From Candidatus Poribacteria bacterium (GTDB taxonomy: Bacteria; Poribacteria; WGA-4E; WGA-3G), in assembly GCA_012271015.1 (NCBI GenBank), contig JAAXHD010000123.1:32138-96137 (forward strand): 64,000 nucleotides of DNA, given 5' to 3'. The position numbers and the translations under genes were made by a program. Positions 471 through 64,000 of this stretch are shown here, in pieces. The notes under the pieces were generated by a model, which did no database searches, was not told where the DNA came from, and was given only the letters and a program-made list of their open reading frames with translations. The first letter of the stretch is position 1; each line of letters starts with the position of its first letter.

Positions 471-743
471 ATGCATTACACAGTTGCTTACGATATTACA
501 GATGACAAACGCCGGAACCGGGTCGCTAAAATCCTCAAAGACTTTGGTACTCGTATCCAATATAGCGTTTTTGAATGTGACACGGATCGCCGCGCCCTGC
601 TACGCTTGCAGAGCCGATTAGAGAAGGCGATTGATTTGCAAGAGGACACGATCACCTTTTACCATCTCTGTACGGCATGTGAGAAACAGATCGATCGGAT
701 CGGTCGAAAAAAAGGGCTTGATAGTCAGTCGTATATTGTGTAA
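471..743 (+). CDS. cas2: CRISPR-associated endoribonuclease Cas2
   Basis: 90-aa protein MHYTVAYDITDDKRRNRVAKILKDFGTRIQYSVFEC..; typical Cas2 N-terminus (YDI.DD.RR.RV...L...G.R.Q.SVFEC). It lies between cas1 and the array. Confidence 0.75.
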   Translation: MHYTVAYDITDDKRRNRVAKILKDFGTRIQYSVFECDTDRRALLRLQSRLEKAIDLQEDTITFYHLCTACEKQIDRIGRKKGLDSQSYIV

Positions 744-929
744 AATTATTTCTATGGGCGAAAGCGGATCAAAAAACCCTTGCTCCTCAAAGAGAGGTGG
801 AAACCGTTATGAGTCGTGCTTTGAACCAATTCATCATGTTTTTCTATGATCTCCATGCCCATGGAAAATTGTCGCGCGCGGAATTGCTGCGGGTTAAAGC
901 ACGTCCGGTAAGACCTCCCATCAAGCGGG

Positions 930-2622
930 GTTGAAATAAGAAGATTCTCGATTACGAGATTGAAACCATAGTCCTTTGCAGGTGCCGCCAACCCCCCAAC
1001 TCAGTTGAAATAAGAAGATTCTCGATTACGAGATTGAAACTCCGTGCGTGTTACTTCCGATGTCTGACCCGCGGCATTGTTGAAATAAGAAGATTCTCGA
1101 TTACGAGATTGAAACTGGGTCTGTGAACGTGGGGCCTCGGTCACCCTCGCGTTGAAATAAGAAGATTCTCGATTACGAGATTGAAACCTGCAGTAATCCT
1201 GCCATCCAGTCGAGGTGTCTTGGTTGAAATAAGAAGATTCTCGATTACGAGATTGAAACTGGTAATGGTAAATTAGGTTTAGTCGCAAGGTCTGGTGGGT
1301 TGAAATAAGAAGATTCTCGATTACGAGATTGAAACTTATAGGTATGACGCATCCTCTGGTGGTTGGGACTTTGGTTGAAATAAGAAGATTCTCGATTACG
1401 AGATTGAAACTTCGGTCATAAGGGTGTATCCAGATGGGATGCCCGCTATGAGAGTTGAAATAAGAAGATTCTCGATTACGAGATTGAAACTAAGTTATAC
1501 TATCCACACATTAACTTTTCTCTTTGGGTTGAAATAAGAAGATTCTCGATTACGAGATTGAAACTGTTCCTGGTGCCCGGCACGCAGGTCAGTCGCGACG
1601 GGTGGGGTTGAAATAAGAAGATTCTCGATTACGAGATTGAAACCTTGTGTGAGTCCGCCGCCACCGCCGCCACCGCCCGGTTGAAATAAGAAGATTCTCG
1701 ATTACGAGATTGAAACCTGCTACCATTGTAACGCCTTCTACGGTTGCCGAGAGTTGAAATAAGAAGATTCTCGATTACGAGATTGAAACTTTTTCAGCGA
1801 AATTCGCAGCAGCCGCCTCTTTAGTATTAGTTGAAATAAGAAGATTCTCGATTACGAGATTGAAACATACATTGAAGTGTAGAACCATCCTCAAACTCAA
1901 AGAGTTGAAATAAGAAGATTCTCGATTACGAGATTGAAACATACGTCAATGTGATGTTATCGCCCGCAGTCACCAAGTTGAAATAAGAAGATTCTCGATT
2001 ACGAGATTGAAACTTCTGGAGGCTCTGTTTCTGGAGGCTCTGCAAGCACGTTGAAATAAGAAGATTCTCGATTACGAGATTGAAACGGGGGTGACGGTGT
2101 AGACACAGTTGACTCTGGTAACGGTTGAAATAAGAAGATTCTCGATTACGAGATTGAAACTCCAGAAATGGTGTTATTGAATGGACACCTCGCGGGAATG
2201 TTGAAATAAGAAGATTCTCGATTACGAGATTGAAACCGATCAGGGTTGTTATCCGTATTGCAGACTAATCCTTTATAGATATGTTGAAATAAGAAGATTC
2301 TCGATTACGAGATTGAAACCTAAAATTAATGAGGGGTGGGGGTTGAAGATTCTCCGTGCCGTTGAAATAAGAAGATTCTCGATTACGAGATTGAAACGAG
2401 AGACAACCTTCCCAACCCGTTTTCGGCAATGCTGTTGAAATAAGAAGATTCTCGATTACGAGATTAAAACGTGCGACCCGAAGATCGCACCTACCTCTCC
2501 ATTTCTAAGTTGAAATAAGAAGATTCTCGATTACGAGATTGAAACATTCTATTTATCAACGTCCTGGTGGTAGATGTGAATGTCCGTTGAAATAAGAAGA
2601 TTCTCGATTACGAGATTGAAGT
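930..2622 (+). CRISPR. CRISPR array with 23 repeats of 37 bp (GTTGAAATAAGAAGATTCTCGATTACGAGATTGAAAC) and 22 spacers of 35-41 bp
   Basis: Direct enumeration of repeats at 930, 1004, 1079, 1151, 1223, 1299, 1374, 1454, 1528, 1607, 1680, 1753, 1840, 1904, 1977, 2050, 2124, 2210, 2283, 2361, 2434, 2509 and 2586. The repeat ends in ATTGAAAC, a type I-B / type III-like 8-nt handle. There is an internal variant at 2434 (..GAGATTAAAAC) and a degenerate terminal repeat at 2586 (..GATTGAAG). The leader (744..929) is on the cas2 side and the degenerate repeat is distal, consistent with transcription on the + strand. Confidence 0.95.
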
Positions 2623-2859
2623 TAACACAATATCATCAAAAAGCAGGTAATTCTAAAATCTACCATAGTTGCGTTCGGAGATGTACAACCATAGGGGTCA
2701 ATTTAGAATTTTCACGGCAGATAGGAGAAACTCTACAAATACCGCCCCTATGGGGCTTAGGTCTAGTGGGTGCCGCTTTTCTACAGAGATATCGTCCCTA
2801 CAGGACTGAAGAAGGGTTTTGGGTAGGCACGGTTTGGATCTAAGACTGGGGCGGTTAGG

Positions 2860-3111: not shown

Positions 3112-3266
3112 CGGAGATGCACAACCTAACAGGTTATGCTACAAAGATAATAACTTGCGTTAAAACAGCAACGAAAACGTAGTCCGTAACGCAGTAGAGG
3201 ACGGCTCCAACGCGAAAATCTTGAAGTTTCAAACCACGTTACTTCTCCGCAAGGAATAATTAAAAA

Positions 3267-4148
3267 ATGAAAATACTTATAACCGGCGCGAGCGGTAGGC
3301 TCGGTGAGTTTGTAATCCGAGAATTGGTGTCAGATCACGCATTAGTGCTGATGTCACGCAGAACACCACCCGCTGAATTCTCGCACCTCCCATTCATCCA
3401 AGGCGATCTGAATACCTTTGAGGACTGCCAGCGTGCTGTTGAAGGTGTGGACGCTATCCAACATCTCGGTGCACAACCCGGTCCCGTCGATCATCCAGAT
3501 TTACGTGCCCGCGCCGCTGAGCAGGGGATCCCCTTCGACGCAACCTTCAAAACGAACATGCTTGGCACTTACTACCTCATGCAAGCCGCAATTGAAGCAG
3601 ATGTCCACACGGTTGTGATGTCCGGAAGCAATTGCGCCTTAGGACACGGCTTTCGGATTAGCAAAACCCACATTCCAGTAGACTACCTCCCTATAGATGA
3701 AGAACACCCGTGCTATCCTGAAGACTCCTATAGTTTCTCTAAACGGTGTGGCGAGGATTTGTTGGCAAGTTACACCCGCGCTTATGGCATCCGAACCTAC
3801 GTTACACGTCCTGCGGGTATCAGCCCAGAAGAACGGAGAAAACAGATGGCGGAAAATGCTAAACCGACAACGGCTTGGACACCGTGGCTCTGGTGTTGGG
3901 TTGGGAGCGAAGATGTCGCAAGTGCACACCGCCTGATTATGGAAAAAGCGGATACGTTACCCGCGCACGATGTCTACTTTTTGAACGCCGACGACACTTC
4001 AGCCTTGGAACCTTCTCAAGAGTTAGTCGAGCGTTTTAAACCCGAATTTCTTCTGAAGGTGAGAACGCTTGAAGGACATCAATCGTTTATTACTTGCGAT
4101 AAACTGAAAAACGCCGTCGGATGGCAACACAAAACATCGTGGCGATAA
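3267..4148 (+). CDS. NAD-dependent epimerase/dehydratase (extended SDR family)
   Basis: N-terminal Rossmann motif ITGASGRLG and catalytic YxxxK (YSFSK). It is preceded by the conserved leader CCGCAAGGAATAATTAAAAAATG. Confidence 0.7.
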   Translation: MKILITGASGRLGEFVIRELVSDHALVLMSRRTPPAEFSHLPFIQGDLNTFEDCQRAVEGVDAIQHLGAQPGPVDHPDLRARAAEQGIPFDATFKTNMLGTYYLMQAAIEADVHTVVMSGSNCALGHGFRISKTHIPVDYLPIDEEHPCYPEDSYSFSKRCGEDLLASYTRAYGIRTYVTRPAGISPEERRKQMAENAKPTTAWTPWLWCWVGSEDVASAHRLIMEKADTLPAHDVYFLNADDTSALEPSQELVERFKPEFLLKVRTLEGHQSFITCDKLKNAVGWQHKTSWR

Positions 4149-4592
4149 TTTCTAATTTTGCTTGCGCGCAGTCAAGGCTATTCGGTAAGAATCTCTTCTT
4201 GTTGGTGCCGCACGCGCCGTTGTTGCGTGCTACGATCTTTGGCTTTTAGAGGAAATATCTTTCTAATTTTGCTTGCGCGCAGTCAAGGCTATTCGGCAAG
4301 AATCTCTTCTTGTTGGTGCCGCACGCGCCGTTGTTGTGTGCTACGATCTTTGGCTTTTAGAGGAAATATCTTTCTAATTTTGCTTGCGCGCAGTCAAGGC
4401 TATTCGGTAAGAATCTCTTCTTGTTGGTGCCGCACGCGCCGTTGTTGCGTGCTACGATCTTTGGCTTTTAGAGGAAATATCTTTCTAATTTTGCTTGCGC
4501 GCAGTCAAGGCTATTCGGCAAGAATCTCTTCTTGTTGGTGCCGCACGCGCCGTTGTTGCGTGCTACGATCTTTGGCTTTTGGAGGAAATATT
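4149..4592. repeat. Four tandem copies of a 111-bp unit in the 5' leader of the downstream oxidoreductase gene
   Basis: Units start at 4149, 4261, 4372 and 4483 (tttctaattttgcttgcgcgcagtcaaggctattcggtaagaatctcttcttgttggtgccgcacgcgccgttgttgcgtgctacgatctttggcttttagaggaaatatc). Each contains the hairpin GCACGC-N9-GCGTGC and ends in an SD-like GAGGAAATAT. Only the last copy is followed by ATG (4593). Confidence 0.9.
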
Positions 4593-5675
4593 ATGTCAAA
4601 CAGTGACAGAGTACGCATCGGTGTTGTCGGTGTCGGGAGTATCTCCGTGCGCGGTATCCTGCCACACCTCACGCAAGACGATGTCCAAGATAGATTACAG
4701 GTAACGGCTGTCTGTGACCCTGTTCCCGGTAGAGCACAAGCGGCCTCTGAAAAATTTAACGTTCCGTATGCGTACGAAACTTATGAAGCCCTCTTAGCAG
4801 ACGGACATGTAGATGCAGTCAGCATCGCATCGCCTATCGGATTGCATTACGAACAGGGAAAACTCGCCATTGAACACGGTCTCCACGCACATTTCAACAA
4901 GACGATGACAACGACTGTCAATGAAGCGGACGCTCTGATCGAATCGGCGGCGCGTAAAGGTGTAAAATTAGTGGCTTCCCCTGGAGAGATGCTCCGTCCG
5001 ATCCATCAAGAAATTCGCAGTCTTATTGCTGACGGTGCTATCGGAACGTTGACATGGGCAGCTGCTGGTTCCGCCTTTGGAAGATACCACGAAAACGAAT
5101 CCGTTAGACATGGTGACGATCCCCTCTCCAATATCAATCCTGCATGGTATTTCCGCAAACCGGGTGGTGGACCTCTCTATGATATGACTGTCTACGGCTT
5201 GCATACACTGACGGGTATCCTCGGACCTGCGAAACGTGTAACGGCGTTCTCCGGTGTTCGCCTCAAGGAACGCGAATTTCGAGGCGAGATGCTTCCGTGC
5301 GACATGGATGATAACACCTTCATTCTCCTTGACTTCGGCGAAGCATTTTACGGCTTTGTCTACGGTGCTGCTGCCGGTTCTGTCGTCAGAGGTAGGCTGG
5401 CAATTCACGGCACCAATGGCACGATTGAAGGCAACTTGCTGAATGGTAAACCCATTGATGCCCCAGACGGGGAGCTCCCACACGTTGTGGGACCGCATCG
5501 TAGCATCCAAGAATCGCACGTTTATGAGGACATTATGCAGTTGATGGATTGGATTCGCGAGGGTAAACCGACGATTGTCACAGCGGAGCATGCCCGGCAT
5601 GTCATAGAGATCTTCGATGCGGGGTACCGATCCGCGCAAACGGGACAGGCACAAGAGTTACGCACCACATTTTGA
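4593..5675 (+). CDS. Gfo/Idh/MocA family oxidoreductase
   Basis: MSNSDRVRIGVVGVGSISVRG.. is an N-terminal Rossmann fold typical of Gfo/Idh/MocA. GGAGG lies 8 nt upstream of ATG 4593. The upstream part of the 4158 ORF is a translation of the tandem repeat and was rejected. Confidence 0.75.
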   Translation: MSNSDRVRIGVVGVGSISVRGILPHLTQDDVQDRLQVTAVCDPVPGRAQAASEKFNVPYAYETYEALLADGHVDAVSIASPIGLHYEQGKLAIEHGLHAHFNKTMTTTVNEADALIESAARKGVKLVASPGEMLRPIHQEIRSLIADGAIGTLTWAAAGSAFGRYHENESVRHGDDPLSNINPAWYFRKPGGGPLYDMTVYGLHTLTGILGPAKRVTAFSGVRLKEREFRGEMLPCDMDDNTFILLDFGEAFYGFVYGAAAGSVVRGRLAIHGTNGTIEGNLLNGKPIDAPDGELPHVVGPHRSIQESHVYEDIMQLMDWIREGKPTIVTAEHARHVIEIFDAGYRSAQTGQAQELRTTF

Positions 5676-19701: not shown

Positions 19702-20002
19702 ACTCTTATGTAGAGTCTCTCATAAATCCTGGCTCAGCAGGGAAGCCGCCGAAGCCCATACGCGTGTCGCCCCGCTGGGCTTAGAGATCTGTGGTCAACA
19801 CGCAGCTACACATCTGTCGCCCCGCTGGGGCTTAGGGAGGGGTTAGAAACACCGTATAGAAGAGAAAGCGGAACGCCTAATGCCAAAAACTTTACATACT
19901 CAGTAAAAACTTTTTGCTTGACAGAATCTGCAATAAGTGCTAACATAATTAAATGTTTTTTTTGTCGGAGATACACCAAAAACGGAGAGTTTCCTAAGTA
20001 CA

Positions 20003-27298: not shown

Positions 27299-27665
27299 TA
27301 GCGAAACTATGGTAGATTTCAGAATTATGGTGGATTTTAGAATTACCTGGACATTCTGCATCGGCGAGGTTAGGAAACCTCGCCTACCCGGGGATGAAAG
27401 TGTCCATGTATTTTCAGCATTTACCATAATTGGACCCTTTCAAATAGTGTGAATGCCTCCAACAGGCATTCACACTAGAAACCCAAACTAAAAGTTTATG
27501 CTACAAAGATGTCTACTTATTTATAGGTTTTACCATAGTAATAATCTGAAGGGTTTTGCATAGGTAGTGATATAGCACAGCTTTCATGATTGAGAAGCTG
27601 CGTCTTTAACGACTTGAGTTTTCATTAGGCCTTAGTAATACCCTTATAACTTGTATGGAGAAACA

Positions 27666-30702: not shown

Positions 30703-30839
30703 CATACTATTAGGGCATTTATAGCAGATTTTAGTAGAATTTGGACACTCTCAAAGAAGTTCTCCAAGGCTCACCTTAGCGTTCCTTCACGTCGCACAGA
30801 CTCACAGTCTATGCTACAATTCTCTCACATTCATCCGCA

Positions 30840-35030: not shown

Positions 35031-35849
35031 TTAAAAGGGATTCGGTACGGTAGTGAAATTCCGGTACCGGTCTTCGCCGCGCAGTAGAATCGGTTTCCAA
35101 GGACGCTTCAGCGAATTTTCCTCTGCCTGCTTTACCGATGGATCTATGTAGCGAATCGTCAGACCACATCTCCGACGTGTAGAATGATTCGGTAGGCTAC
35201 CGTGGATCATCTGTCCGTGGTGGATGGACATTTCACCGGCTTTCAGCACCAAATCTACGGCGGTTTCTGCTTCTGCTTCGGTGACGGGTACCTCTTGATT
35301 GATGCTCAGCAGGTTGCCTGCCTGGTCGGATGTCCCGTGTTCCTTGATGCCACGCTGATGGCTTCCCGGGATTACCTGCATACAGCCGTTCCCTGTATCG
35401 CTGTCGTCTATGGCATACCAAGCAGTAATCGCATCCGGTGGTTCAAGTCCCCAATACGTCACGTCTTGATGCCATGCCACGAACTTGTCGCGGGGACCGT
35501 ACTTGCAGAAGAAATGCGTAGCTAACAGCATCACATCGGGACCGATAAGTGCCTCGATGACATCTACAATTTTCGGATGCGTCGCGAGTTCCCAGATAAA
35601 TTGATAATCGAAATGCCAATCGACAAGACCAATTTCACATTTCTCTGCACCGACTTCCGCTTCCAATGCATCATAGGCTTGCCGATGGCGCGTTGCTTCA
35701 ACTTCACCGGAAACATGGATACCGGTCAAGAATCCGTCTTTTCGGTAATTTTCAGCAAGTTTTTTGGTTATACCTTGCGGTTCGGTAAAGGGGGTTTGTG
35801 CACTCACGGTTACCTCCGTATATCCGGAAGCTTGCATTGGCGGAACCAT
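35031..35849 (-). CDS. Phytanoyl-CoA dioxygenase (PhyH) family protein. The true start is probably just downstream of the in-frame conserved element at 35762-35790.
   Basis: PhyH-like core (..DGFLTGIHVSG.., HxD..H facial-triad context). The N-terminal 30 residues include the translated element TEPQGITKK. Confidence 0.6.
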   Translation of the reverse strand: MVPPMQASGYTEVTVSAQTPFTEPQGITKKLAENYRKDGFLTGIHVSGEVEATRHRQAYDALEAEVGAEKCEIGLVDWHFDYQFIWELATHPKIVDVIEALIGPDVMLLATHFFCKYGPRDKFVAWHQDVTYWGLEPPDAITAWYAIDDSDTGNGCMQVIPGSHQRGIKEHGTSDQAGNLLSINQEVPVTEAEAETAVDLVLKAGEMSIHHGQMIHGSLPNHSTRRRCGLTIRYIDPSVKQAEENSLKRPWKPILLRGEDRYRNFTTVPNPF

Positions 35850-37848: not shown

Positions 37849-40800
37849 CTACAATACCTCACGTAAAAAGCGCGCAGTGTGGGATTCCTGCACCGAGGCG
37901 ACTTCCTCTGGTGTCCCCATGGCAACGACTTCTCCGCCGCCTTTGCTTCCTTCAGGTCCCAAGTCGATGATCCAGTCGGCAGACTTGATAACGTCGATGT
38001 TATGTTCGACAGCGATAATCGTGTTGCCCGCATCAACGAGTCGGTTCAGTACCTTGAGGAGTTTCTGGATGTCGTCAAAGTGGAGCCCTGTCGTCGGCTC
38101 ATCCATGATATAGAGCGTTGAACCGGTTTGGCGACGTGCCAATTCTTTCGCAAGTTTGACGCGCTGCGCCTCACCACCGGAGAGGGTCGTCGCGGATTGT
38201 CCCAATTCTATATAACCGAGTCCAACATCTGTTAACATCTGAAGCGTCCGACAGATGCGTGGACTTTCACTGAAGAATGCGAGTGCTTCGTCCACTGTCA
38301 TCGCTAAGACTTCAGCAATATTTTTGTCCTTGTAACGGATTTCAAGGGTTTCCATACTATAACCGGTGCTATTACACGTCTCACACGGCATCCACACATC
38401 AGGAAGGAAATGCATCTCAATGCGATTGAAACGGTGCCCCTCACAAACATGACACTGCCCCTGTGCGAGGTTGAAACTGAATGTGCCCATACTATACCCA
38501 CGCATCTTCGCATCATGTTGCTCAGCGAAGAGTTCACGGATTTTCGTAAACAGGTCGGTATAAGTTGCTGGATTGGAACGCGGCGTCTCTCCGATCGCCT
38601 TCTGGTCTACATTGATGAGACGTTTGATATGGCTAACACCGCGGATGGTTTCATATTCCGGTAGACCATAGTCGTTATATATCGGTTCTCGGTGACCATC
38701 GCTGAAATAATGGGTATAACGACGGTCCTTGGGATCACCAGTTTTGATAGAACTACGACTTTCAAGAGCGGGTTTTAGTGTGCCTTCAACGAGCGAACTC
38801 TTTCCGCACCCTGAGACACCAGTGACACAGGTGAGTGTCCCAAGTGGAATCTCAACATCAATGTCTTTGAGATTATTCGTTTTCGCCCCGAATATTGTTA
38901 ATTGTTTTCCTATGCCTTCGCGCCGAGTGCTGGGAACAAGAATCTCCACTTCATTAGAAAGATAGGCTTGCGTCAAAGATTTTTTAATTTTACCTTGCGG
39001 GGACCTTTCGGGGGTTTGTGCTTTGACGTGCTTTTCTGTAGAGTCGCCCTCCACTTCGTTACGGGCTATCGGTTGCGTGCTAATCACTGATTGCTGATCG
39101 CTGACCGCTGATCGCTGAAATGTATCCGGCGTACCGATAGCGACAATCTCACCACCTCCCTTGCCTGCTTGGGGACCGAAGTCGATTACATGATCGGAGG
39201 CTAATATTGTATCGCGGTCGTGTTCAACGACGAGGACGCTGTTCCCAATATCGCGGAGTTCCTTGAGTGCCGCAATGAGGCGTTCTTGGTCGCGCGGGTG
39301 TAAGCCGATACTCGGTTCGTCAAGAATATAGGTTACACCGGTGAGACCGCTACCGAGTTGGCTCGCGAGCTGGATTCTGCGCATTTCGCCACCGGAAAGC
39401 GTTGGTGCTCCGCGGTCTAACGCCAGATAACCGAGCCCAATATCTTCCAAGAACTGGAGCCGCGTCCGGATTTGGTGTAGGACTTCGGCTTCAAATTCAG
39501 GTGAAGTATGAATGTGAAGTGACGGATGCGTCGCTCTTGAGGTTGACACGCCTGTTGCGATCAGGAAATCGTTCCTATCAGTCTCCGCGTCAGCCGAAAC
39601 GACCGCCGCTTCGATTCGATTTAACTGTGTGTCGAAGAACTCAATAATTTCGGTAATTGACAATGCCATCAATTCAGAGACAGTTACATTCTCAAATCTG
39701 ACACAACTTGGAAAGGGTTTCAGTCGTGTGCCGTGGCATTGTTTGCACGCCTCGTATGGTGGGTGCATGTTTCTTCCGCGTCCATCACAGAAATCGCAAG
39801 CCCCTATTTTGTTGTTAAAGGAGAAGTGGCGTGGTGTCAATTGCCCAAAATTGTTGCCGCAAGAACGACACATCGCGTGTTCACTAAAGAAATGTCGTTC
39901 CGTTGTTTGTCCGCGTTCTATTTTTTCTATGAGTACGAACCCACCACTTTGTAGGAGTGCTAACTCCACGGCTTCCGTAAAACGACTTTTTTCCTCGTCT
40001 ACAAGTTCGACGCGGTCGATGACGATAAAGATTTCATGGTGAATGCCCCTACTCAACTTCGGCGTTTCATCAAGTCGGTGAATCTCACCGTCAATTTGAA
40101 CCCGTACAAATCCTGCTCTTTGCAATCGACGAAATACATCAGCGTAATCCTCGTTCCCTTTCAAACCGTACGCTGACTCACTTGCATTTACATCAACAAT
40201 TTTACCCCTTGACACGCCTTCTTTACCTTCCGGAAGCAGCAAGAAGTTCGTGAGCGGTGCGAGGACATCCACCCGCTGTTCGCGGAGGATTTCAAAAACC
40301 TGCTCCGTTATTTCTTCCGCTGTCTGTGGCTGTACCTCCTTTTGGCAATCTGGACAGTAGGGCTTACCCCATCTGGCATAAAGTGTACGGAGTCCATCGT
40401 GTATCTCCGTAATCGTCGCGACAGTGGATCTTGGGTTTTGCCCAGCATTGGCGTGCGAAATAGCAATCGCGGGCGAGAGTCCCTCAATTTTTGAGACTTT
40501 GGGCTTTTCCATCTGCCCTATAAACTGACGCGCATAAGTGCTGAGTGTTTCAATATAACGACGCTGTCCTTCGGCATAAACAGTATCCAGTGCAAGCGAT
40601 GTCTTACCCGAACCGCTCACCCCAGTCAACGCGGTCATCTTTCGGTGCGGAATATCGATGTCAATATCTTTCAGATTATTTTCTGTAGCTCCTCGCACAA
40701 CAATGTTTTTAATTTTTCTTTGCGGTTCGTTCAAGTGAATTGGTCGTTCCACGCTCCGTTCCGTACATCCGCACCCCACTTCGTTACAGGCTACGATTTC

Positions 40801-43758
40801 GTCGGATTCTGCAATTATACCTTGTGGTTCATTCGGATCGGAAGAAGAGCAGATATCGAAATCCCCGCGAAGTGCCCGACCGGTGTAAGATTCCGGCATG
40901 TCCGCGATCTGTTCAGGTGTCCCCACGGCAACGATAGTACCGCCATCAATACCGCCCTCAGGTCCCAAATCAATGAGATAATCTGCGGAGTTAACGACTT
41001 CCAGATTATGTTCAACGACGACGACCGTATTGCCATCGTCTACGAGTCTATGAAGTATCGTCAACAGTTTATTTACATCGTCAAAGTGCAAACCGGTTGT
41101 GGGTTCGTCGAGGATATAGAGCGTTTTACCGGTGCCGCGTTTGGAAAGTTCCCGCGAAAGTTTGATACGTTGTGCTTCGCCACCTGAGAGCGTGGGGGCG
41201 GGTTGTCCGAGTTTAATGTAATCCAAACCGACATCATGGAGCAGTTTCAACCCTCTTGCGATCCTCGGAATATCGGCGAAATGTGCAAGTGCAGTCTCAA
41301 TATCCATTTCAAGGACTTCAGAGATGTTCTTCTCCTTGTATTTAATGGCGAGGGTTTCGCTATTGAAGCGTTTTCCCTCACACACCTCACACTCCACCCA
41401 GACATCAGAGAGGAGTCCCATATCGACTTTTTTTGCACCGTTCCCGCTACAGGCTTCACATCTACCACCAGAGACGTTGAAACTAAACCGTCCGGGTTTA
41501 TAGCCTCGCAATTTGGCATCGGGCAACCCCGCATAGAGTGCGCGAATATTGTCGAAGACTTTTGTGTATGTCGCTGCGTTGGAACGCGGTGTGCGTCCGA
41601 TAGGTGCCATGTCGATGTTGATAATTTTGTCTATGACATCGGAGACCGGAACGCTTTTCCCTTCAATGATGCCCCGAATATCGTCATAATCCCCCGGCAC
41701 AGTCTTCGCTTTCATGAGGTCGCGGGCGAGTGCTTTGTAGAGAATATCGTGAATTAAGGAACTCTTTCCAGAACCACTCACACCCGTTACACAGCAGAGC
41801 GTACCCATAGGTACTTTAGGACTGATACCTTGGAGATTGTTCTGGCGTGCGTTGCAGATTTGTATCCACCTATCTCCTGTTGGTCGGCGGGATTCGGGTT
41901 GAACGATCACCTGATCGCCTCGGAGATATTGGGCAGTGAGTGTATTGCTCTCCTTCATGAACTGTGCGGGTGTACCGATATCCGTTATATTCCCGCCCTT
42001 AATGCCAGCACCGGGACCGAAATCGACGATAAGATCAGCCACCAACATCGTTGCTTCATCGTGCTCAACGACGATAACGGTGTTGCCTTGATTCCGCAAG
42101 TTTAAGAGGGTCATGAGCAAACCGGCGTGGTCGCGTGGATGTAAACCGATGCTGGGTTCATCAAGAACATAGGTGACATCTCGTAACCCTGCTCCTACCT
42201 GACTCGCAAGGCGAATGCGCTGTGCTTCACCACCGGAAAGGGTCGGTGCGGGACGTGCAAGCGTCAGATACCCCAACCCTACGTCCATAAGGAATCCGAG
42301 TCGTCCTCGAATTTCTTTTAAGAGTTCTGACGCGATGAGCGTCTCGCGCTCTGGAAGTTCCAACTCGCCGAAGAATTGGGTGGCATCCTGAATAGACATC
42401 TCAAGAATGTCCGTTATAGAGGTATCGCCTATCGTCACGGCTTTTACCCATGGGGTAAGTCGGGTTCCTTCACATGTCCTGCAGGGCATTTTGACAAAAT
42501 AGTCCGGGAAGGTGTCTTCATCGGTTTCCTCGTCATCCTCAAAGCGATACTTCTGCTCTTCAGTTGGAATGATGCCGTGAAAACGGGCGCGATATTGCCG
42601 TCGTTGCTTTCGCCCTCTGTGTCTACCTGTACTGGGGGTGGTAATCGTAAGAATATCGTCCCCGGTGCCGTAGAGAATGGCATGTTGCTGTTCCGGTGTG
42701 AGGTCTTTCCAAGGTGTCTCAATATCGAATCCGAGGTGTTTTGCGAGTGCCTCAGCGATTACCTTTTCCTTGAGAGTATTTCGCGTATCAAGAGGTCCCC
42801 ATAGACTTATGGCACCTTGCATGATGGAAAGCGTCTCATCTGGCACGATCAACCTTGGCAAGATTCCCATTTCCACGCCTAAACCGCGACAATTCTCACA
42901 CATTCCATCAGGGTTGTTGAAAGAGAAGTGGCGTGGTTCTGGTTTCACGAAACTGATCCGGCAGTGCGCGCAGGTATAATCCTCGCTAAACAGCAGGTCG
43001 TCGTCCTCCGTCGCGAATGGAGATCCTTCGCCTTCAGTGGGAACAACGTGGACAAGGAGGCTTCCATCTCCACGCATGAGGGCAGTAGATACGGCTTGCG
43101 CAACACGAGGTTCAACTCCCTCCTTGATAACAATCCGGTCAATGACAACATCAATGTCGTGACGTTGATTGGGATTCAAGGTGAGACCGGGTCGGAGTTC
43201 GTATATTTCACCATCGATTCGCAACCTCGCGAAACCCGCTTTGCGTAAATCTTCAAGTTCTCTTTGGTGTGCGCCGCGGGAGCCTCTGATAATCGGTGCT
43301 AAAATGATAAGTCTGGTGCGCTCTGGATAGTCGATCAGAGCTTGGACGATATCTGCGGCAGTTTGTGAACCGACCTCACGCCCGCATTCGGGACAGTGGA
43401 ATTGCCCTGCGCGGGCATAGAGGACACGGAGGTAGTCGTAGACTTCTGTTACGGTTGCCACTGTGGAACGCGGGTTATGTCCCGTTGATCCCTGATCAAT
43501 GGCAATAGAAGGAGACAATCCGACAATTTCGTCTACATCTGGCTTGCCGAGTTGCCCTAAAAACTGCCGGGCGTACGCCGATAAAGACTCGATGTATCGG
43601 CGTTGTCCTTCGGCGTAAACGGTATCAATCGCCATCGAAGATTTGCCGGAACCGCTCACACCGGTGAAGACGATGAGTTTGTCTTTTGGAAGTTGGATAT
43701 CAATGTTTCTGAGATTGTGCTCGCGTGCACCTTGTACAAGAATCGACTCTTCTGTCAT
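37849..43758 (-). CDS. uvrA: Uninterrupted 1969-codon ORF containing two complete UvrA (excinuclease ABC subunit A) units in tandem. UvrA unit 1 is about 43758..40750. UvrA unit 2 is about 40699..37849 and is itself interrupted in frame at 38975-39120.
   Basis: Four ABC ATPase modules (Walker [33 protein letters not shown]; signature LSGGEAQRI x3 and LSGGEMRRI). UvrA zinc-finger cysteines. C-terminus ..[12 protein letters not shown]. The junctions carry the conserved repeat element (see findings). Confidence 0.85.
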
Positions 43759-43853
43759 TTTTTAATTATTCCTTGCGGTTCGGTCAGAGGGATTAAGACA
43801 TTCTTGTTTCTTTGCGTATATCTGCCTGCGCCGGTGTTGCAGGCTACAATTTC
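43759..43853 (-). promoter_or_regulatory. Full copy of the recurrent conserved element (motif B hairpin plus motif A ..CTGACCGAACCGCAAGGAATAATTAAAAA) abutting the uvrA ATG
   Basis: See findings. The same roughly 95-nt bipartite element is at 47304..47396, 40706..40840 and 38980..39072. Motif A alone is at 63902..63940, 3246..3266 and 35762..35790. Confidence 0.6.
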
Positions 43854-45683: not shown

Positions 45684-46118
45684 GGTGCCACCTCGTCACT
45701 ATTTTTTTGGACTACGCGACAAAATTATACCACATCTCACAGTTAGATAACAATTTGTTTTTCAGTGAAAGTAGGAATGGATTAGAATCCGACTCTATAG
45801 CAACGCTGTCCTCTGTGATGTTTGAACGAATTATATGCCCCAATTTTCCCCATAGGTGAGTTAGGATTCTACAACCATAGCCGTCAATTTAGGGTTTTTC
45901 ACGGTATTTGGTAGCACCGTCTTTACAAATGCCGCCCCGCTGGAGCTTGGGTCTTTGAGTTAACATATGCTACACAAATGCCGCCCCGATGGGGCTAAAT
46001 CGGATAAATCGCGAGCCGGAGCTCGCTCCTACAGGGTGTAGCACCGTCTTTACAAATGCCGCCCCGCTGGGGCTTTAGATACACCCAACATTCTAATAGG
46101 GACTCTATCTTAATTGAC

Positions 46119-47399
46119 TTATAAGGCAGTACCCAATTCTTTCGCGATAGTGTAGACATCTTTGTCCCCGCGACCTGAAAGGCAGACAGCAATAATTTGA
46201 TTTTTACCAAGTTTAGGTGCAAGCTCACGCAGATAGGCAATGGCATGTGCGGATTCTAATGCGGGGATGATCCCCTCCGTCTCTGATAGCAATCGGAATC
46301 CCTCTACCGCCTCTGCATCGGTAATCGGCACGTATTCCGCTCTACCGGTTTCACGATAATAACTGTGTTCCGGTCCGACACCCGGATAATCTAATCCTGC
46401 AGAGATCGAGTGTGCGGGGGTTATCTGACCGTCATCCTCTTGCAACAGATAGCACTTCGCACCGTGAAAGACACCAACACTACCCGCAGTGAGAGGTGCG
46501 GCGTGTCGTCCGCTACGAATGCTGTCACCTGCGGCTTCTACACCGATAAGCCGAACAGATTGATCGGCATAGAAGGGATAGAACATACCGAGTGAATTAC
46601 TCCCACCCCCGACACAGGCGACGACACAATCAGGTAAAGTCCCTGCCGCCTCTAAAATCTGTGCTCTCGCTTCGGCACCGATGACGGATTGGAAGTCTCG
46701 AACGATCATTGGGTAAGGGTGTGCGCCGACAACCGAGCCGAGAAGCAGATAGGTGGTTCGGACATTCGTGACCCAATCTCGGAAGCAGGCGTTGATCGCA
46801 TCCTTGAGCGTCCGCGACCCAGAGTTAACCGGTACGACCTTTGTGCCCATCAATTGCATGCGGAAAACGTTGAGTGCCTGCCGTTCTATGTCTTCCTCAC
46901 CCATATACACTTCGCATTCCATACCGAACTTTGCGGCGACAGTGGCTGTTGCGACGCCGTGTTGTCCAGCACCGGTCTCGGCAATGATGCGTTTTTTGCC
47001 CATCCACCGCGCGAGGAGGATTTGACCGATTGCGCTGTTAATTTTGTGAGCACCTGTATGGTTGAGGTCTTCCCGTTTGAGATATATTTTTGCGCCACCG
47101 AGTGTTTCTGTTAAATGCTCGGCGTAATAGAGTGGGTTTGGTCGCCCGACATACTCACGGAGGTAGTACTGAAACTCTTGCTGGAATTCGGGATTGTCCT
47201 TGAGTTTCATGTACGCTTCTTCGAGTTCTAAAAGGGCGGGCATGAGTGTTTCGGGGACGTATCTGCCTCCGAATTGTCCGAAATGTCCTGTCGCATCAGG
47301 AAGTTTTTTAATTATACCTTGCGGTTCGTTTAGATGGACCTGGGATTGCATATTCATCTCCGTATATCTGCCTGCGCCGTTGTTGCAGGCGACAATCAT
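46119..47399 (-). CDS. trpB: Tryptophan synthase beta chain. The N-terminus is uncertain because the conserved element is in frame at codons about 20-32.
   Basis: ..[19 protein letters not shown].., the PLP lysine region ..[12 protein letters not shown].., and GGGSN. The first 32 codons ([32 protein letters not shown]) are a translation of the repeat element. Alternative ATG codons lie at 47357 and 47351. Confidence 0.85.
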
Positions 47400-47426
47400 G
47401 GAATGTAGAGGGAGCAGTAGCCATGG

Positions 47427-48425
47427 TCAAAAACTTGCGCGGAGGTTCGATTGTTCTAAAACAGATGGGTTCACGACGGATTCCGGCAGTTTTCCGGTCA
47501 GGACTTGCACGACACACGTGGCGGCGGCAATCTCTAAGTCAAGAATGGATTCTTCTGACATAAAAGCGGCGTGTGGTGTAACGACGACGTTGTCGAGGGT
47601 CAGCAGTCCTTCGTTCTGTTCAGGGGGTTCTGTTTCCAAGACGTCCACACCTGCCCCGGCGATATCAGCGTTCTGAAGCGCAGTAGTGAGCGCAGCAGTG
47701 TCTACGATACCTCCACGCGCTGAGTTAATCAGATAGGCCGTCGGTTTCATCGCCCGAAATTCTGCCGCCCCAAACATGCCCTGTGTTTCTGGTGTCAGTG
47801 GCGCATGGATAGTGATAAAATCAGAGGTTGCGAGGAGTTCTGAAAACGAAACCTTTTGCGCACCGGACTGCTGAATTAATTCAGGATCCGTACGCGGCGA
47901 ACAGACGTTGATTGTAAATCCAAACGCCTTCGCTTTCGGCACAATTGAGCGTGCAATCCGTCCGAAGCCGACGACACCGAGCGTTTTACCTCGGATCCTA
48001 CGCATCGATGGTCCGATATTTTGCTCCCATCTGCCTCCTTTGACAGCCCGATCATAGCGCGAAATTTTTCTCGCACACGCCAGCAGCAACCCCATCGCGT
48101 GGTCCGATACCTCATCGATACAATACGCGGGGACATTGGTGACAACGATGCCGTGTTCTGTAGCAACTTCCACATCAATGTTGTCTAACCCTATACCGCA
48201 ACGTCCGATAATCTGACAATTTTCAGCGGCAGCGATGACAGGCGCACGAACAGGTTTCCAACAGGTAAGGATGCCGTCCATCGTAGGAGCAAGGGTTAGG
48301 AGTTCTGCCTCGTCGCCAGTCTCCGCGGCGATGAGTTCCGCCCCGATTTCGGCAAGCACTTGTCGTTCAGGTTCTATAGAGGGCCAAGCGTAATCGGTAA
48401 TGAGGACTTTCCAGTTGTTTTGCAT
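47427..48425 (-). CDS. D-isomer-specific 2-hydroxyacid dehydrogenase (phosphoglycerate dehydrogenase-like)
   Basis: GxGxxG NAD-binding motif (GVVGFGRIARSI) and the catalytic R/E/H pattern of the D-2-hydroxyacid dehydrogenase family. Confidence 0.7.
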   Translation of the reverse strand: MQNNWKVLITDYAWPSIEPERQVLAEIGAELIAAETGDEAELLTLAPTMDGILTCWKPVRAPVIAAAENCQIIGRCGIGLDNIDVEVATEHGIVVTNVPAYCIDEVSDHAMGLLLACARKISRYDRAVKGGRWEQNIGPSMRRIRGKTLGVVGFGRIARSIVPKAKAFGFTINVCSPRTDPELIQQSGAQKVSFSELLATSDFITIHAPLTPETQGMFGAAEFRAMKPTAYLINSARGGIVDTAALTTALQNADIAGAGVDVLETEPPEQNEGLLTLDNVVVTPHAAFMSEESILDLEIAAATCVVQVLTGKLPESVVNPSVLEQSNLRASF

Positions 48426-60725: not shown

Positions 60726-62180
60726 TTACTCACCCGTGTAGAGTTTCCCGAAATAGGGTCGATACCCTGCAGGTCCAGGGAAACCGTTCCAGTAATGCGC
60801 ATCGGCAGGGAAAGCAGCCTCGCCGCCACTCCGAAGCCACGCCATGAGCGCGGGATCGGTGCCACGGCGTTCGATTTCATCAACAGCGGCGGCGTGCAGT
60901 TTCGCAACGATGTCGGGATGTTCATCGGCAACATCGTCTAATTCACCGAGTCGGACGAGGCTTGAATTTTCAGGTTTCGTGCCGACCTCTAAACTCCACT
61001 CACGATCAAAGATAGTGAAGAGGTTGAGATTCGGATTCTCTGTGCTATTCTCCCACCGCTCAATACTTCCACCAGAGAGTGCAAGCTGCCTTTCACCGGC
61101 TTCCCCGTTACGTGCTGGGGTTAAGATGTCGTGTCCTTCAATGCCGTCGGGACGTGCTTCCCCTAAGATATTGAGAATTGTCGGGAAGAAGTCCTGCGGT
61201 TGGACGATGACGTTACTTCTCCCTGTATCTCCTTCGGGAAGCCGAATAAAGAGCGGGACATGTGTCTCCTGCTGACGGACAGGTTGTCCCTTGCCGAACC
61301 TGCCGCGTTCACCGACATTTGTCCCGTGGTCAGCGGTGAAGATGACAGCGGTATTCTTGTCAAGCCCCGTGGATTCAAGTGCGTCAAGAAATTGTCCGAA
61401 GCAGTGGTCCATCCATGTCGTTTTCGCGGCGTATTGCGCTTTGATGTGCTGTTTCGCTTCATCTGAGAGCTTCGCATTACCCCTTGCGCCGAGACTGCGC
61501 GGATCAACGCGTCCATCGTAACCCGGGCGGGTATCGTATTTTTTCATGAACTCAAGCGGTGCATCCCAAGGTTCGTGGGGATCGAAGCAGTCTACCCAGA
61601 GGAAGAAATTGTCTCGCTTAGCATTGTCTTTGAGGAATTGCGCCGCGGTGTTGAAGAGTCTTGCGCAGTTCCAATCTTCAGGTTTTTTGCGGTTTCTGTT
61701 TGCGCGTGCGTAACTACGAAGCATCCCGGATTCAGCGGCTTTGTCATCGATACAATCGAAGAGAGGTTGATGGGTCCAGTTGTCGGGCCATACTACAGTA
61801 TCGGAAATCCAGTCTCTGTCTACTTCCGCACCGCGAACGAACGTCCATGCGTGGAAGGGCCAGTCGAAGTTATGCCCACCGTTGACGAGATGCGGTGTAT
61901 CGTGAATGAGCTGCGTCGCGTAGCCATTTTCTGCGAGTGTCCACGGCAAAGTTTGGCGTTCATGACGAAGCGGTTTCCACGGGTGGATGGGCGCGCCGTA
62001 TTGCCCAGTGATGACATCAGTCCGATAGGGGATAGTTGGGAAACTGGCGCAGAAAGCGTAGTCAAACGCCATGGCTTCGGAAGCAAACCGATCAATGTTG
62101 GGTGTTTCTATCCAGTCATTTCCGTTCGCGCCGATGTAGTCGTAGCGGAGTGTATCAATAACAATATAAGCGAGATTCAT
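60726..62180 (-). CDS. Sulfatase-like hydrolase (alkaline phosphatase superfamily)
   Basis: N-terminal ..IVIDTLRYDYIGANG.. and overall sulfatase-family pattern. The canonical C/S-x-P-x-R is not clearly identifiable (CASFPTIPYR). Confidence 0.5.
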   Translation of the reverse strand: MNLAYIVIDTLRYDYIGANGNDWIETPNIDRFASEAMAFDYAFCASFPTIPYRTDVITGQYGAPIHPWKPLRHERQTLPWTLAENGYATQLIHDTPHLVNGGHNFDWPFHAWTFVRGAEVDRDWISDTVVWPDNWTHQPLFDCIDDKAAESGMLRSYARANRNRKKPEDWNCARLFNTAAQFLKDNAKRDNFFLWVDCFDPHEPWDAPLEFMKKYDTRPGYDGRVDPRSLGARGNAKLSDEAKQHIKAQYAAKTTWMDHCFGQFLDALESTGLDKNTAVIFTADHGTNVGERGRFGKGQPVRQQETHVPLFIRLPEGDTGRSNVIVQPQDFFPTILNILGEARPDGIEGHDILTPARNGEAGERQLALSGGSIERWENSTENPNLNLFTIFDREWSLEVGTKPENSSLVRLGELDDVADEHPDIVAKLHAAAVDEIERRGTDPALMAWLRSGGEAAFPADAHYWNGFPGPAGYRPYFGKLYTGE

Positions 62181-62327
62181 TTTTTTAATTTTCCTTTTCT
62201 TGGCTTTCGGCTTTCAGGTCGCTGCGCTTTCGGCTATCAGTAGTGTCTATGGTAGTTGCTGAAGTTTTGTTCGCCGCAAATGCCTCTTGTCCGATTGCCG
62301 ATGGCTGACCCCCGATAGCCAACGACA

Positions 62328-63076: not shown

Positions 63077-63901
63077 TTATGCCTCCTTAATTGCGTCGCG
63101 GTCGGCGGTTGCCCACTCTTCCCAGCGTTCTTCATCGGAACGGAGGAAACCGGAATTGCACCGGGGTTGAAGCTGCTCGTCCACACCGAGGAGTCGCATG
63201 TGTTGATGATTATTGGCGGCTTTCGCAGTCTCCAACAACTCTTGGGTATGTGGACCGGTGTGATGATCGGTGTGTTTTAGCCATGTGAGGTTATAATAGA
63301 TGCTAAAAAAATAACGTAAATTTCCAGAAGTGTTCGGGGTGCCGGAGTGGATCAGTCCGTTATGTGTGATGACAACATCACCGGCTCCCATGTGAACCAA
63401 TGTTTCGTCGGGATGCGGGACACTTCGTTGTGAATCTTCCAAGGTAATCGGTTTGCGATGCGAACCGACAATGACACGGAGGGGTCCGTATTCATCCGTT
63501 AAATCCTGTAGATAGGATATAGCGTTGATGGCGTTCGGGCGATGATAGGCATCAGTAAAAGGAACGTGTGCCCAGCGATCACGGTGCCACCCTGAGACTC
63601 TGCCTTCCGCTTTTTCCGCTTCCATGGATGGAAAGGCGGCAAGCGTGAGGTTATCTAATTGCACGAAGGGCCCCATCACTCTTTCTACAAATTCAAGGAT
63701 TGTTGGATGTGAGACAGCGGGCCACATCAGTTCAGGTGCCAATTCAAGCGTATTTCCGAACCATGTTTGACCGTCGTTGGCGGCAGAGAGTTCTTGATGT
63801 TTCTCTCGCCAATTTTGCATTTGCGGTTCGTCAAAGACTTTCTCAAAGATTGTGAAACCATCGGTTCTATAGGCTTCAAAGTGTTCGTCAAGCGTTGCCA
63901 T
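63077..63901 (-). CDS. Phytanoyl-CoA dioxygenase (PhyH) family protein
   Basis: ..YRTDGFTIFEKVFDEPQM.. and GWHRD. It is preceded immediately by the conserved leader element. Confidence 0.6.
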   Translation of the reverse strand: MATLDEHFEAYRTDGFTIFEKVFDEPQMQNWREKHQELSAANDGQTWFGNTLELAPELMWPAVSHPTILEFVERVMGPFVQLDNLTLAAFPSMEAEKAEGRVSGWHRDRWAHVPFTDAYHRPNAINAISYLQDLTDEYGPLRVIVGSHRKPITLEDSQRSVPHPDETLVHMGAGDVVITHNGLIHSGTPNTSGNLRYFFSIYYNLTWLKHTDHHTGPHTQELLETAKAANNHQHMRLLGVDEQLQPRCNSGFLRSDEERWEEWATADRDAIKEA

Positions 63902-64000
63902 CTTTTAATTATTCCTTGCGGTTCGGTCAGGCGGATTAGATATTCAACACGTTTCTCCGTAGACCTAAAGAAACACCCCGCTGAATGCCACACGCGCATT

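Follow-up and report, generated by a model that had tools for sequence, protein, structure and literature searches.

Where does translation of trpB start when a dispersed repeat occupies the 5' end of its reading frame? The question is raised by a stretch of 64,000 nt (hereafter the window) from a Candidatus Poribacteria bacterium, a sponge symbiont (contig JAAXHD010000123.1, positions 32,138-96,137 of the forward strand). The trpB open reading frame (ORF), as delimited mechanically, lies on the minus strand at 46119..47399 with its stop at 46119, and its first 32 codons correspond to a 93-nt repeat (47304-47396), hereafter the element. The element is a high-copy, Poribacteria-specific composite repeat, in which a hairpin tagged with GTAG, like that of repetitive extragenic palindromes (REPs), is joined to a 3' module anchored at start codons. 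From the sequence comparisons below, trpB probably begins at ATG 47351 inside the element and would carry a 16-residue, element-encoded N-terminal extension.

The trpB copy of the element

The original prediction, made from the letters of the window, held that the element forms about the first 32 codons of the trpB ORF with no canonical start after it, and the ORF translation agreed. In-frame ATGs were found only at 47399, 47357 and 47351, ahead of the conserved core, as had been stated. A canonical start with a Shine-Dalgarno (SD) sequence that might have been overlooked downstream was sought, and none was found before the conserved core: between the end of the repeat and the core there was no in-frame ATG, GTG or TTG, and the sequence directly 3' of ATA ATT was AAAAAA CTT CCT GAT GCG. 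The next canonical start in frame was ATG 47243, within ETLMPALL and beyond a conserved 12-residue TrpB motif, so that initiation there would delete the motif. The features of the locus were as follows.

47304..47396, minus strand: full element copy at the 5' end of trpB (nhmmer E = 4e-18, model positions 4-96), aligned with 101 other copies
47370..47393, minus strand: element 5' module, comprising the tag (47393-47390) and hairpin 1
47358..47361, minus strand: GGAG, SD-like, within the motif ACGGAG of the element; 6 nt before ATG 47351
47355..47357, minus strand: alternative in-frame ATG, abutting GGAG (spacer 0) and not conserved
47349..47351, minus strand: ATG, the proposed trpB start, 36 nt before the element ATA codon
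47317..47324, minus strand: element core CCGCAAGG, invariant or nearly so in 102 copies
47304..47315, minus strand: A/U-rich 3' end of the element, ATA ATT AAA AAA, with the rival start ATT at 47312-47310
46119..47351, minus strand: trpB coding sequence as proposed, 410 aa, coordinates including the stop (Pfam PALP, E = 8e-42), with 93-95% identity to TrpB orthologues of Poribacteria
47402..47430, minus strand: promoter-like TTGACC-17 nt-TACATT (9/12 matches), overlapping the stop of the upstream 2-hydroxyacid dehydrogenase gene; weak evidence of a promoter

The tag of this copy read GTCG, the consensus being GTAG, and the arms of hairpin 1 were GCCTGC (47390-47385) and GCAGGC (47375-47370). 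GGAG (47358..47361) was unpaired in the predicted fold. The tail, ATAATTAAAA, holds a TAA in each of frames 1 and 2 and only the frame ATA ATT AAA AAA is without a stop, so a gene lacking its own start could be joined to the element in that frame alone. The promoter-like site was not conserved among orthologues. The 2-hydroxyacid dehydrogenase ORF (47427-48425, minus strand) shares the reading frame of trpB, with TGA 47429-47427 as the sole separator; the shared frame is probably a coincidence.

Copy number, anatomy and position of the element

The repeat is not explicable by chance matching. In the window its 3' 24-mer GAACCGCAAGGTATAATTAAAAAA gave 4 matches at up to 3 mismatches against 0 expected, and the profile search recovered 7 copies (E values 5e-19 to 7e-10), one partial copy and a diverged tandem array. 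An exact-pattern scan with one genome per species returned more than 112 loci, nearly all of them in Candidatus Poribacteria assemblies (about 30 assemblies). The 112 loci held about 110 further copies per Mb with the seeded copy excluded, and a genome of 5-6 Mb would therefore carry several hundred copies. Presence or absence of the element differed among close relatives at trpB, PhyH, a DAO gene and a linker within UvrA.

The element was aligned over 102 copies, and position weights were taken from 117. At the 5' start, a short A-rich stretch is followed by GTAG, directly 5' of the stem (weights G 0.79, T 0.73, A 0.98, G 0.97); no other part of the 5' end is as well conserved. The stem covaries, with the pairs of arms GCCTGC/GCAGGC, GCCC/GGGC, GCTC/GAGC, GTCC/GGAC and GCAC/GTGC. 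Four stem pairs and two pairs of the CCGCAAGG core were 98.5% paired; 66 cells were changed on both sides, compared with 14.8 for shuffles, none of 500 of which attained this value, and no more than 3 for slid controls. Double changes occurred in three stem pairs, in 10, 11 and 45 sequences. RNAalifold gave support to no structure beyond hairpin 1 and the CC/GG pairing around GCAA. The variable middle holds ACGGAGAGG or AGGAA (SD-like ACGGAG/AGG) and divides the copies into two subfamilies; the 3' end consists of the invariant CCGCAAGG followed by the A/U-rich tail WATAATTAAAAA.

Two further signals were sought and set aside. A long-range helix of CGG.AGG with CCT..CCG reached 69% pairing in one subfamily (shifted controls, 25-39%) and showed hardly any covariation; it is suggestive only. 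For a sigma-70 promoter at a fixed distance upstream of the element, the position-weight profile held no -35 or -10 signal, only about 14 nt of A-rich conservation. Rfam covariance models gave 0 matches over the window at gathering thresholds, and on 47250-47450 the sole match was a chance one to SNORD18 (E = 5.4). A tblastn search for the REP-associated tyrosine transposase (RAYT), with an Escherichia coli query sequence, over about 1 Mb (the window and 158 loci) gave a best E of 0.4. In the literature collection searched, no paper connects Poribacteria with intergenic repeats, with REPs or with start codons.

The 3' end of the element is placed with respect to the following gene. Among 153 copies with a long downstream ORF, an ATG lay within 9 nt of the element 3' end in 98 (the canonical arrangement), 78 of which had the single form TTAAAAAATG. 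An upstream ORF in the same direction was present in 81% of canonical copies, the distance from its stop to GTAG ranging from -62 to 512 nt (median 81). Copies that are themselves coding made up about 17% of those with a downstream ORF. Neighbouring copies at most 300 nt apart were in the same orientation in 30 cases and in opposite orientation in 8.

trpB in related genomes

Comparison of trpB 5' regions from related genomes, which the original prediction had proposed as a check, showed that the N-terminal extension is shared together with clear conservation of the element at the nucleotide level. The same arrangement occurred in at least 7 independent assemblies (L006, L087, L118, L122/L134, L159, L160 and P0015), with TrpB 93-97% identical to that of the window in those checked (L006, L087, L118, L122/L134). 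All element-bearing orthologues kept GGAGAT[AG]AA[TC]ATG and an open frame, and ATG 47351 was the sole ATG conserved in every one of them. ATG 47357 is shared by the window with L122/L134 and L159 alone, ATA standing in its place in the remaining orthologues; ATG 47399 was specific to the window, lies 5' of hairpin 1 without an SD, and falls in sequence that differs among orthologues, some of which have a stop about 100 nt upstream in its frame.

Past AAAAAA, all 5 differences between the window and L006 were synonymous, and the pairs seen among orthologues were CTT/CTC, GAT/GAC, GCG/GCA and GGA/GGG. The LPDATG codons are thus translated, and initiation takes place at or upstream of the Leu codon. 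In element-free Poribacteria (L125, P0004-7, P0017) the same 2-hydroxyacid dehydrogenase gene lies upstream of a TrpB that is 93% identical, and the gene begins ..CTGGAGAACTCTC ATG CAA CAA CTC CCT GAC, preceded by an SD and encoding MQQLPD; the N-termini of more distant relatives were MQPLPD or MNQNLPD. The alignment of the two kinds of 5' end shows the element's ATT AAA AAA standing where element-free relatives have the original ATG CAA CAA.

In L159 the trpB region (560-700, plus strand) carries a 48-nt in-frame duplication of the 3' half of the element. There a full element tail, TTAAAAAC, stands directly before the ATG that matches 47351, and the proximal copy is without ATA ATT (GGA AAT TTT; it reads GGAAATTTT), with TTG as the Leu codon after the A-run. 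Among P0002-P0007 and P0015, element-bearing and element-free 5' ends were both found in the AEHLTETL and in the AERLTETL type of TrpB. The trpB 5' alleles do not simply track the TrpB tree, and this suggests that strain recombination or repeated gain and loss has moved them.

Choice of the trpB start codon

The two options named in the original prediction, an N-terminal peptide derived from the element or initiation at a non-canonical codon, both survived the tests. To compare them, genes without a start of their own at the 3' end of the element were collected: 26 displaced-start copies, joined in the trpB frame, among the 153 with a downstream ORF, with 94 canonical copies for comparison. 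Genes joined to the element tail that have no in-frame ATG, GTG or TTG ahead of their conserved domain are listed here.

L083 4126-4926, minus strand: ProC, none between the last upstream stop and the domain
L047 6727-7605, minus strand: MurQ-like SIS protein, none before the conserved domain
L053 5085-6095, minus strand: homocysteine S-methyltransferase (L053-1893), none before the conserved domain

A start at ATG 47351 is probable from the conservation of that codon and from the displaced-start statistics. For most copies, the following gene would have the element as its intercistronic leader and its region of translation initiation; at trpB the element has replaced the original start, the gene being joined to the only stop-free frame of the tail, and ribosomes would begin at ATG 47351, 6 nt past GGAG. 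The spacing matches that of other genes of the window, which have GGAG or GGAGG 6-8 nt before ATG. Of the 26 displaced-start copies, 20 had an ATG, GTG or TTG in frame within the element and ahead of any stop, against 32/94 canonical ones, and 9 of 26, against 6 of 94, combined an open frame with a start codon precisely at -36 (Fisher p = 6e-4; 7 of about 19 displaced-start copies by hand count after orthologues were collapsed). Where a displaced-start copy holds a stop inside the element in that frame, a start codon usually follows directly after it. A large ProC clade keeps the ATG and the open frame even where the element core has decayed (NAPQETIKN). The full element tail that stands directly before this ATG in L159, and the start proposed for PhyH below, also speak for it. 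The original prediction had given the peptide as MNMQSQ.., from ATG 47357; this part was not upheld, the likely start being 47351. Non-AUG initiation is not required for trpB, ATG 47351 with its GGAG being available.

Several observations count against a start at ATG 47351. The stretch from this ATG to CGAACCG differs between orthologues mostly by non-synonymous changes (about 6-7 against 2), so that the extension is unconstrained, as non-coding sequence would be, and conservation of the ATG among close orthologues could reflect descent alone (p of about 0.1-0.2 by our own rough estimate). The lack of constraint also favours a rival, a near-cognate start in the tail, at ATT 47312-47310 or, less likely, ATA 47315-47313, with the upstream ATG as an inherited accident or a minor second start; we consider it a serious but less likely alternative. 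ATT-AAA-AAA-CTT would give MKKLPD, exactly as long as the ancestral MQQLPD. With ATT read as Met, many displaced-start genes would gain very natural N-termini (MKNIVVRGA in UvrA, MKNIILGVTGG in CoaBC), signal peptides of displaced-start genes would begin MKK or MKI, and the Pfam domains of ProC, CoaBC and the DAO oxidoreductase begin 2-6 residues past ATT. ATT is retained where ATA has been replaced (GGTAAAATT copies), and the three genes listed above have no canonical in-frame start; they are the best candidates for AUU or AUA initiation, or else contain sequence errors. Yet such a start would not need the enrichment of canonical starts inside the element that was seen in displaced-start genes, and ATT lies only 4 nt past AAGG and 8 nt upstream of the position of ATG in canonical copies. 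L159 has lost ATA ATT and kept the upstream ATGs, but has TTG for CTT. ProC calls truncated to MGG.. (256-257 aa, seven clusters) had also been considered as start-less genes and were dropped: in all four of the seven that were checked (L161-L164) an in-frame ATG or GTG lies upstream.

The remaining explanations of the locus carry far less weight than either of these. That trpB starts at ATG 47357 (MNMQSQ..) or at the mechanical start ATG 47399 (MIVACN..) is improbable; both are in frame with no stop between, but the former has no spacer to GGAG and is ATA in most orthologues, and the latter is peculiar to the window, has no SD, lies 5' of hairpin 1 and is preceded in some orthologues by an in-frame stop. 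It is very improbable that the element is mainly a promoter, with (T/A)ATAAT as a -10 box, leaderless mRNAs whose first base is the A of an ATG lying 7 nt further on, and trpB as an aberrant copy. TATAAT or AATAAT does end 6 nt before ATG in most canonical copies, but the 102-copy alignment shows no -35-like sequence at 16-18 nt, the compensatory changes of the hairpin point to a role as single-stranded nucleic acid, copies inside the UvrA ORF would be transcribed and read through, displaced-start genes need the upstream half of the element to be transcribed, and the usual position of canonical copies behind a co-directional ORF does not fit; a leaderless promoter was rejected as the main function. 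An assembly artefact or a trpB pseudogene is hardly credible and was effectively refuted by the orthologue comparison: nothing speaks for it except the missing start, and against it stand the independent assemblies that share the arrangement, the purely synonymous changes of the core and the intact 392-aa frame. An intein, an intron, frameshifting at A AAA AAC and translational bypass were likewise rejected, since the frame is continuous, neither an intein nor an intron would fit into so small an element, and trpB has a canonical start.

The PhyH gene and other copies in the window

The original prediction had described the PhyH gene (35031..35849) as arranged like trpB, and the sequence agrees: ..TEPQGITKK is followed by AAAAAA CTT GCT GAA, and the next in-frame start past the element is TTG 35729, within the conserved DGFLTG. 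The element copy there holds GGAGG (35817-35813), TAA (35812-35810, the stop of an upstream creatininase-family gene), CC and GTG (35807-35805), which places GTG 35807 2 nt past that stop and at a 5-nt spacer (TAACC) from GGAGG. We propose that PhyH begins at this canonical, SD-preceded GTG inside its element copy, as a textbook coupled start; the predicted N-terminal peptide would be (M)SAQTPFTEPQGITK.

The other copies of the window were the following.

3170..3266, plus strand: canonical copy, then ATG 3267 of an epimerase-like gene beginning MKILITGASG
43758..43851, minus strand: canonical copy before the ATG of the UvrA ORF, ending AAAAAATGA (profile search)
63901..63965, minus strand: canonical variant copy (3' two-thirds) carrying a GGGGTGTTTCT insert, then the ATG of a second PhyH-like gene
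35760..35826, minus strand: partial copy, 3' two-thirds, before the PhyH-family gene (profile search)
40705..40860, minus strand: full copy (40705-40798) and partial copy (about 40813-40860), in frame, lying within the linker between two UvrA units
38980..39070, minus strand: in-frame copy separating the ABC halves of the second UvrA unit (profile search)
4148..4702, minus strand: tandem array of five diverged copies with a 111-nt period, antisense to the flanking genes

That other copies carry an ATG where trpB has none, as originally stated, held for 3/8 window copies, with ATG directly 3' of those at 3170-3266 (plus strand), 43758 and 63901, and did not hold for the rest, including the in-frame UvrA copies. 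The ORF at 37849-43758 (minus strand, 1969 aa) is an in-frame fusion of two complete UvrA units (Pfam UvrA_inter, UvrA_DNA-bind and ABC_tran) that holds two full and one partial element copies, all in frame. The L006 orthologue has the same fusion with an in-frame linker that lacks the element, and the double UvrA is therefore a genuine Poribacteria gene.

The units of the antisense array are a diverged version of the element (GTAGCACGCAACAACGGCGCGTGCGG...CGCGCAAGCAAAATTAGAAAG), and L063 and L094 have similar arrays, of seven 142-nt and three 123-nt units respectively. In its antisense position the array at 4148-4702 cannot act as a leader. Upstream of the sulfatase-like gene at 62180 (62180-62210, minus strand) the sequence reads ..AAGAAAAGGAAAATTAAAAAAATG, like the element tail without the remaining element, and A-rich tracts immediately precede the ATG of several other window genes.

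Other repeats in the window

A CRISPR-like (clustered regularly interspaced short palindromic repeats) array occupies 920-2645 (plus strand), with about 23 copies of a 37-nt repeat, GTTGAAATAAGAAGATTCTCGATTACGAGATTGAAAC, spaced 72-83 nt. A second family, CTACAAAT[AG]CCGCCCC-nnn-GGGGCTT, forms a G+C hairpin at 2721-2758, 19796-19833, 45911-45948, 45960-45997 and 46038-46075, the last three grouped shortly past the stop codon of trpB; the family could represent terminators or a further type of REP. A third repeat, ..CAACCTAACAGGTTATGCTACAAAGAT, was found at 3115-3148, 27477-27510 and 30790-30823, with one copy immediately upstream of the element at 3170, and may be promoter-related.

Comparison with known repeats

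GTAG-tagged REPs have been found inside both uvrA genes of Opitutus terrae and the uvrA of Thioalkalivibrio, and many lie at the N-termini of ORFs, a good number of which may be non-coding because there is a start further downstream (Di Nocera, De Gregorio and Rocco 2013, PMC3733652). According to the same paper, classical unidirectional REPs lie close against the end of the preceding ORF and at a variable distance from the next one, and N-termini decorated with RPE-1 in Rickettsia are expressed in vivo. The Poribacteria element resembles GTAG-tagged REPs in its GTAG at the 5' foot of a short hairpin with compensatory stem changes, in its high copy number and dispersal, mostly between co-directional genes, and in copies inside ORFs, notably uvrA. 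It differs in that its 3' end abuts the downstream start while the distance to the upstream stop varies (median 81 nt), and in having on its 3' side a further conserved module, some 65 nt long, which finishes with CCGCAAGG and the A/U-rich tail. Unlike the REP cases at N-termini, trpB has no start downstream, and unlike the inverted dimers of REPINs (REP doublets forming hairpins) and BIMEs (bacterial interspersed mosaic elements), neighbouring copies are mostly direct tandems (30 against 8 inverted). What is new here is a start-codon-anchored variant of GTAG-tagged REPs; REPs inside uvrA and at ORF N-termini were already known.

Rickettsia palindromic elements (RPEs) are likewise short repeats in ORFs that keep the frame open and add peptides, including at N-termini; their sequence is unrelated, and most Poribacteria copies, in contrast, are non-coding leaders before start codons. 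The peptides encoded by the Poribacteria element would be translated, as the open frames and the enrichment of start codons indirectly suggest.

Mycobacterial interspersed repetitive units (MIRUs), a family linked with Supply and colleagues in 1997, are 40-100 nt long, lie between cistrons, occur in tandem arrays and contain short ORFs overlapping the flanking stop and start codons. Canonical Poribacteria copies are similar in being intercistronic and tandem and in ending AAAAAATGA, in which the ATG overlaps a stop codon of the element frame. MIRUs are not known to carry a conserved GTAG-tagged hairpin, and phylum and sequence differ. Correia elements of Neisseria and enterobacterial repetitive intergenic consensus (ERIC) sequences are elements of 5' untranslated regions, akin to miniature inverted-repeat transposable elements, that alter expression. 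As with these and with putative mobile promoters, homologous upstream regions stand before unrelated genes; unlike Correia and ERIC sequences, the Poribacteria element is without terminal inverted repeats and is anchored within a few nt of the start. In E. coli, infC is initiated at the non-AUG codon AUU. The trpB gene has a comparable in-frame ATT at the natural position of its N-terminus and, unlike infC, an upstream in-frame canonical ATG with an SD.

Implications for Poribacteria

Gene callers were inconsistent at element loci, extending genes to arbitrary upstream ATGs or truncating them to an internal ATG (ProC), and hundreds of gene starts per Poribacteria genome would be affected; the element makes up the bulk of many intergenic regions. 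As a tentative generalisation, which we hold to be possible rather than probable, a REP-derived, start-anchored cassette would serve Poribacteria as a portable leader and initiation region for about 1 gene in eight or nine, with overwritten starts rescued either by a start codon evolved within the cassette, so that element-encoded linkers or N-terminal peptides arise, or by genuine AUU initiation in certain genes (ProC of L083, the MurQ-like gene of L047, possibly trpB). Housekeeping proteins such as TrpB, ProC, CoaBC and UvrA can receive from the element a start codon, a tail at the N-terminus or a linker between domains. The spread of repeats to start codons can be addressed concretely in this system, which may also reveal whether an uncultivated phylum makes use of AUU initiation.

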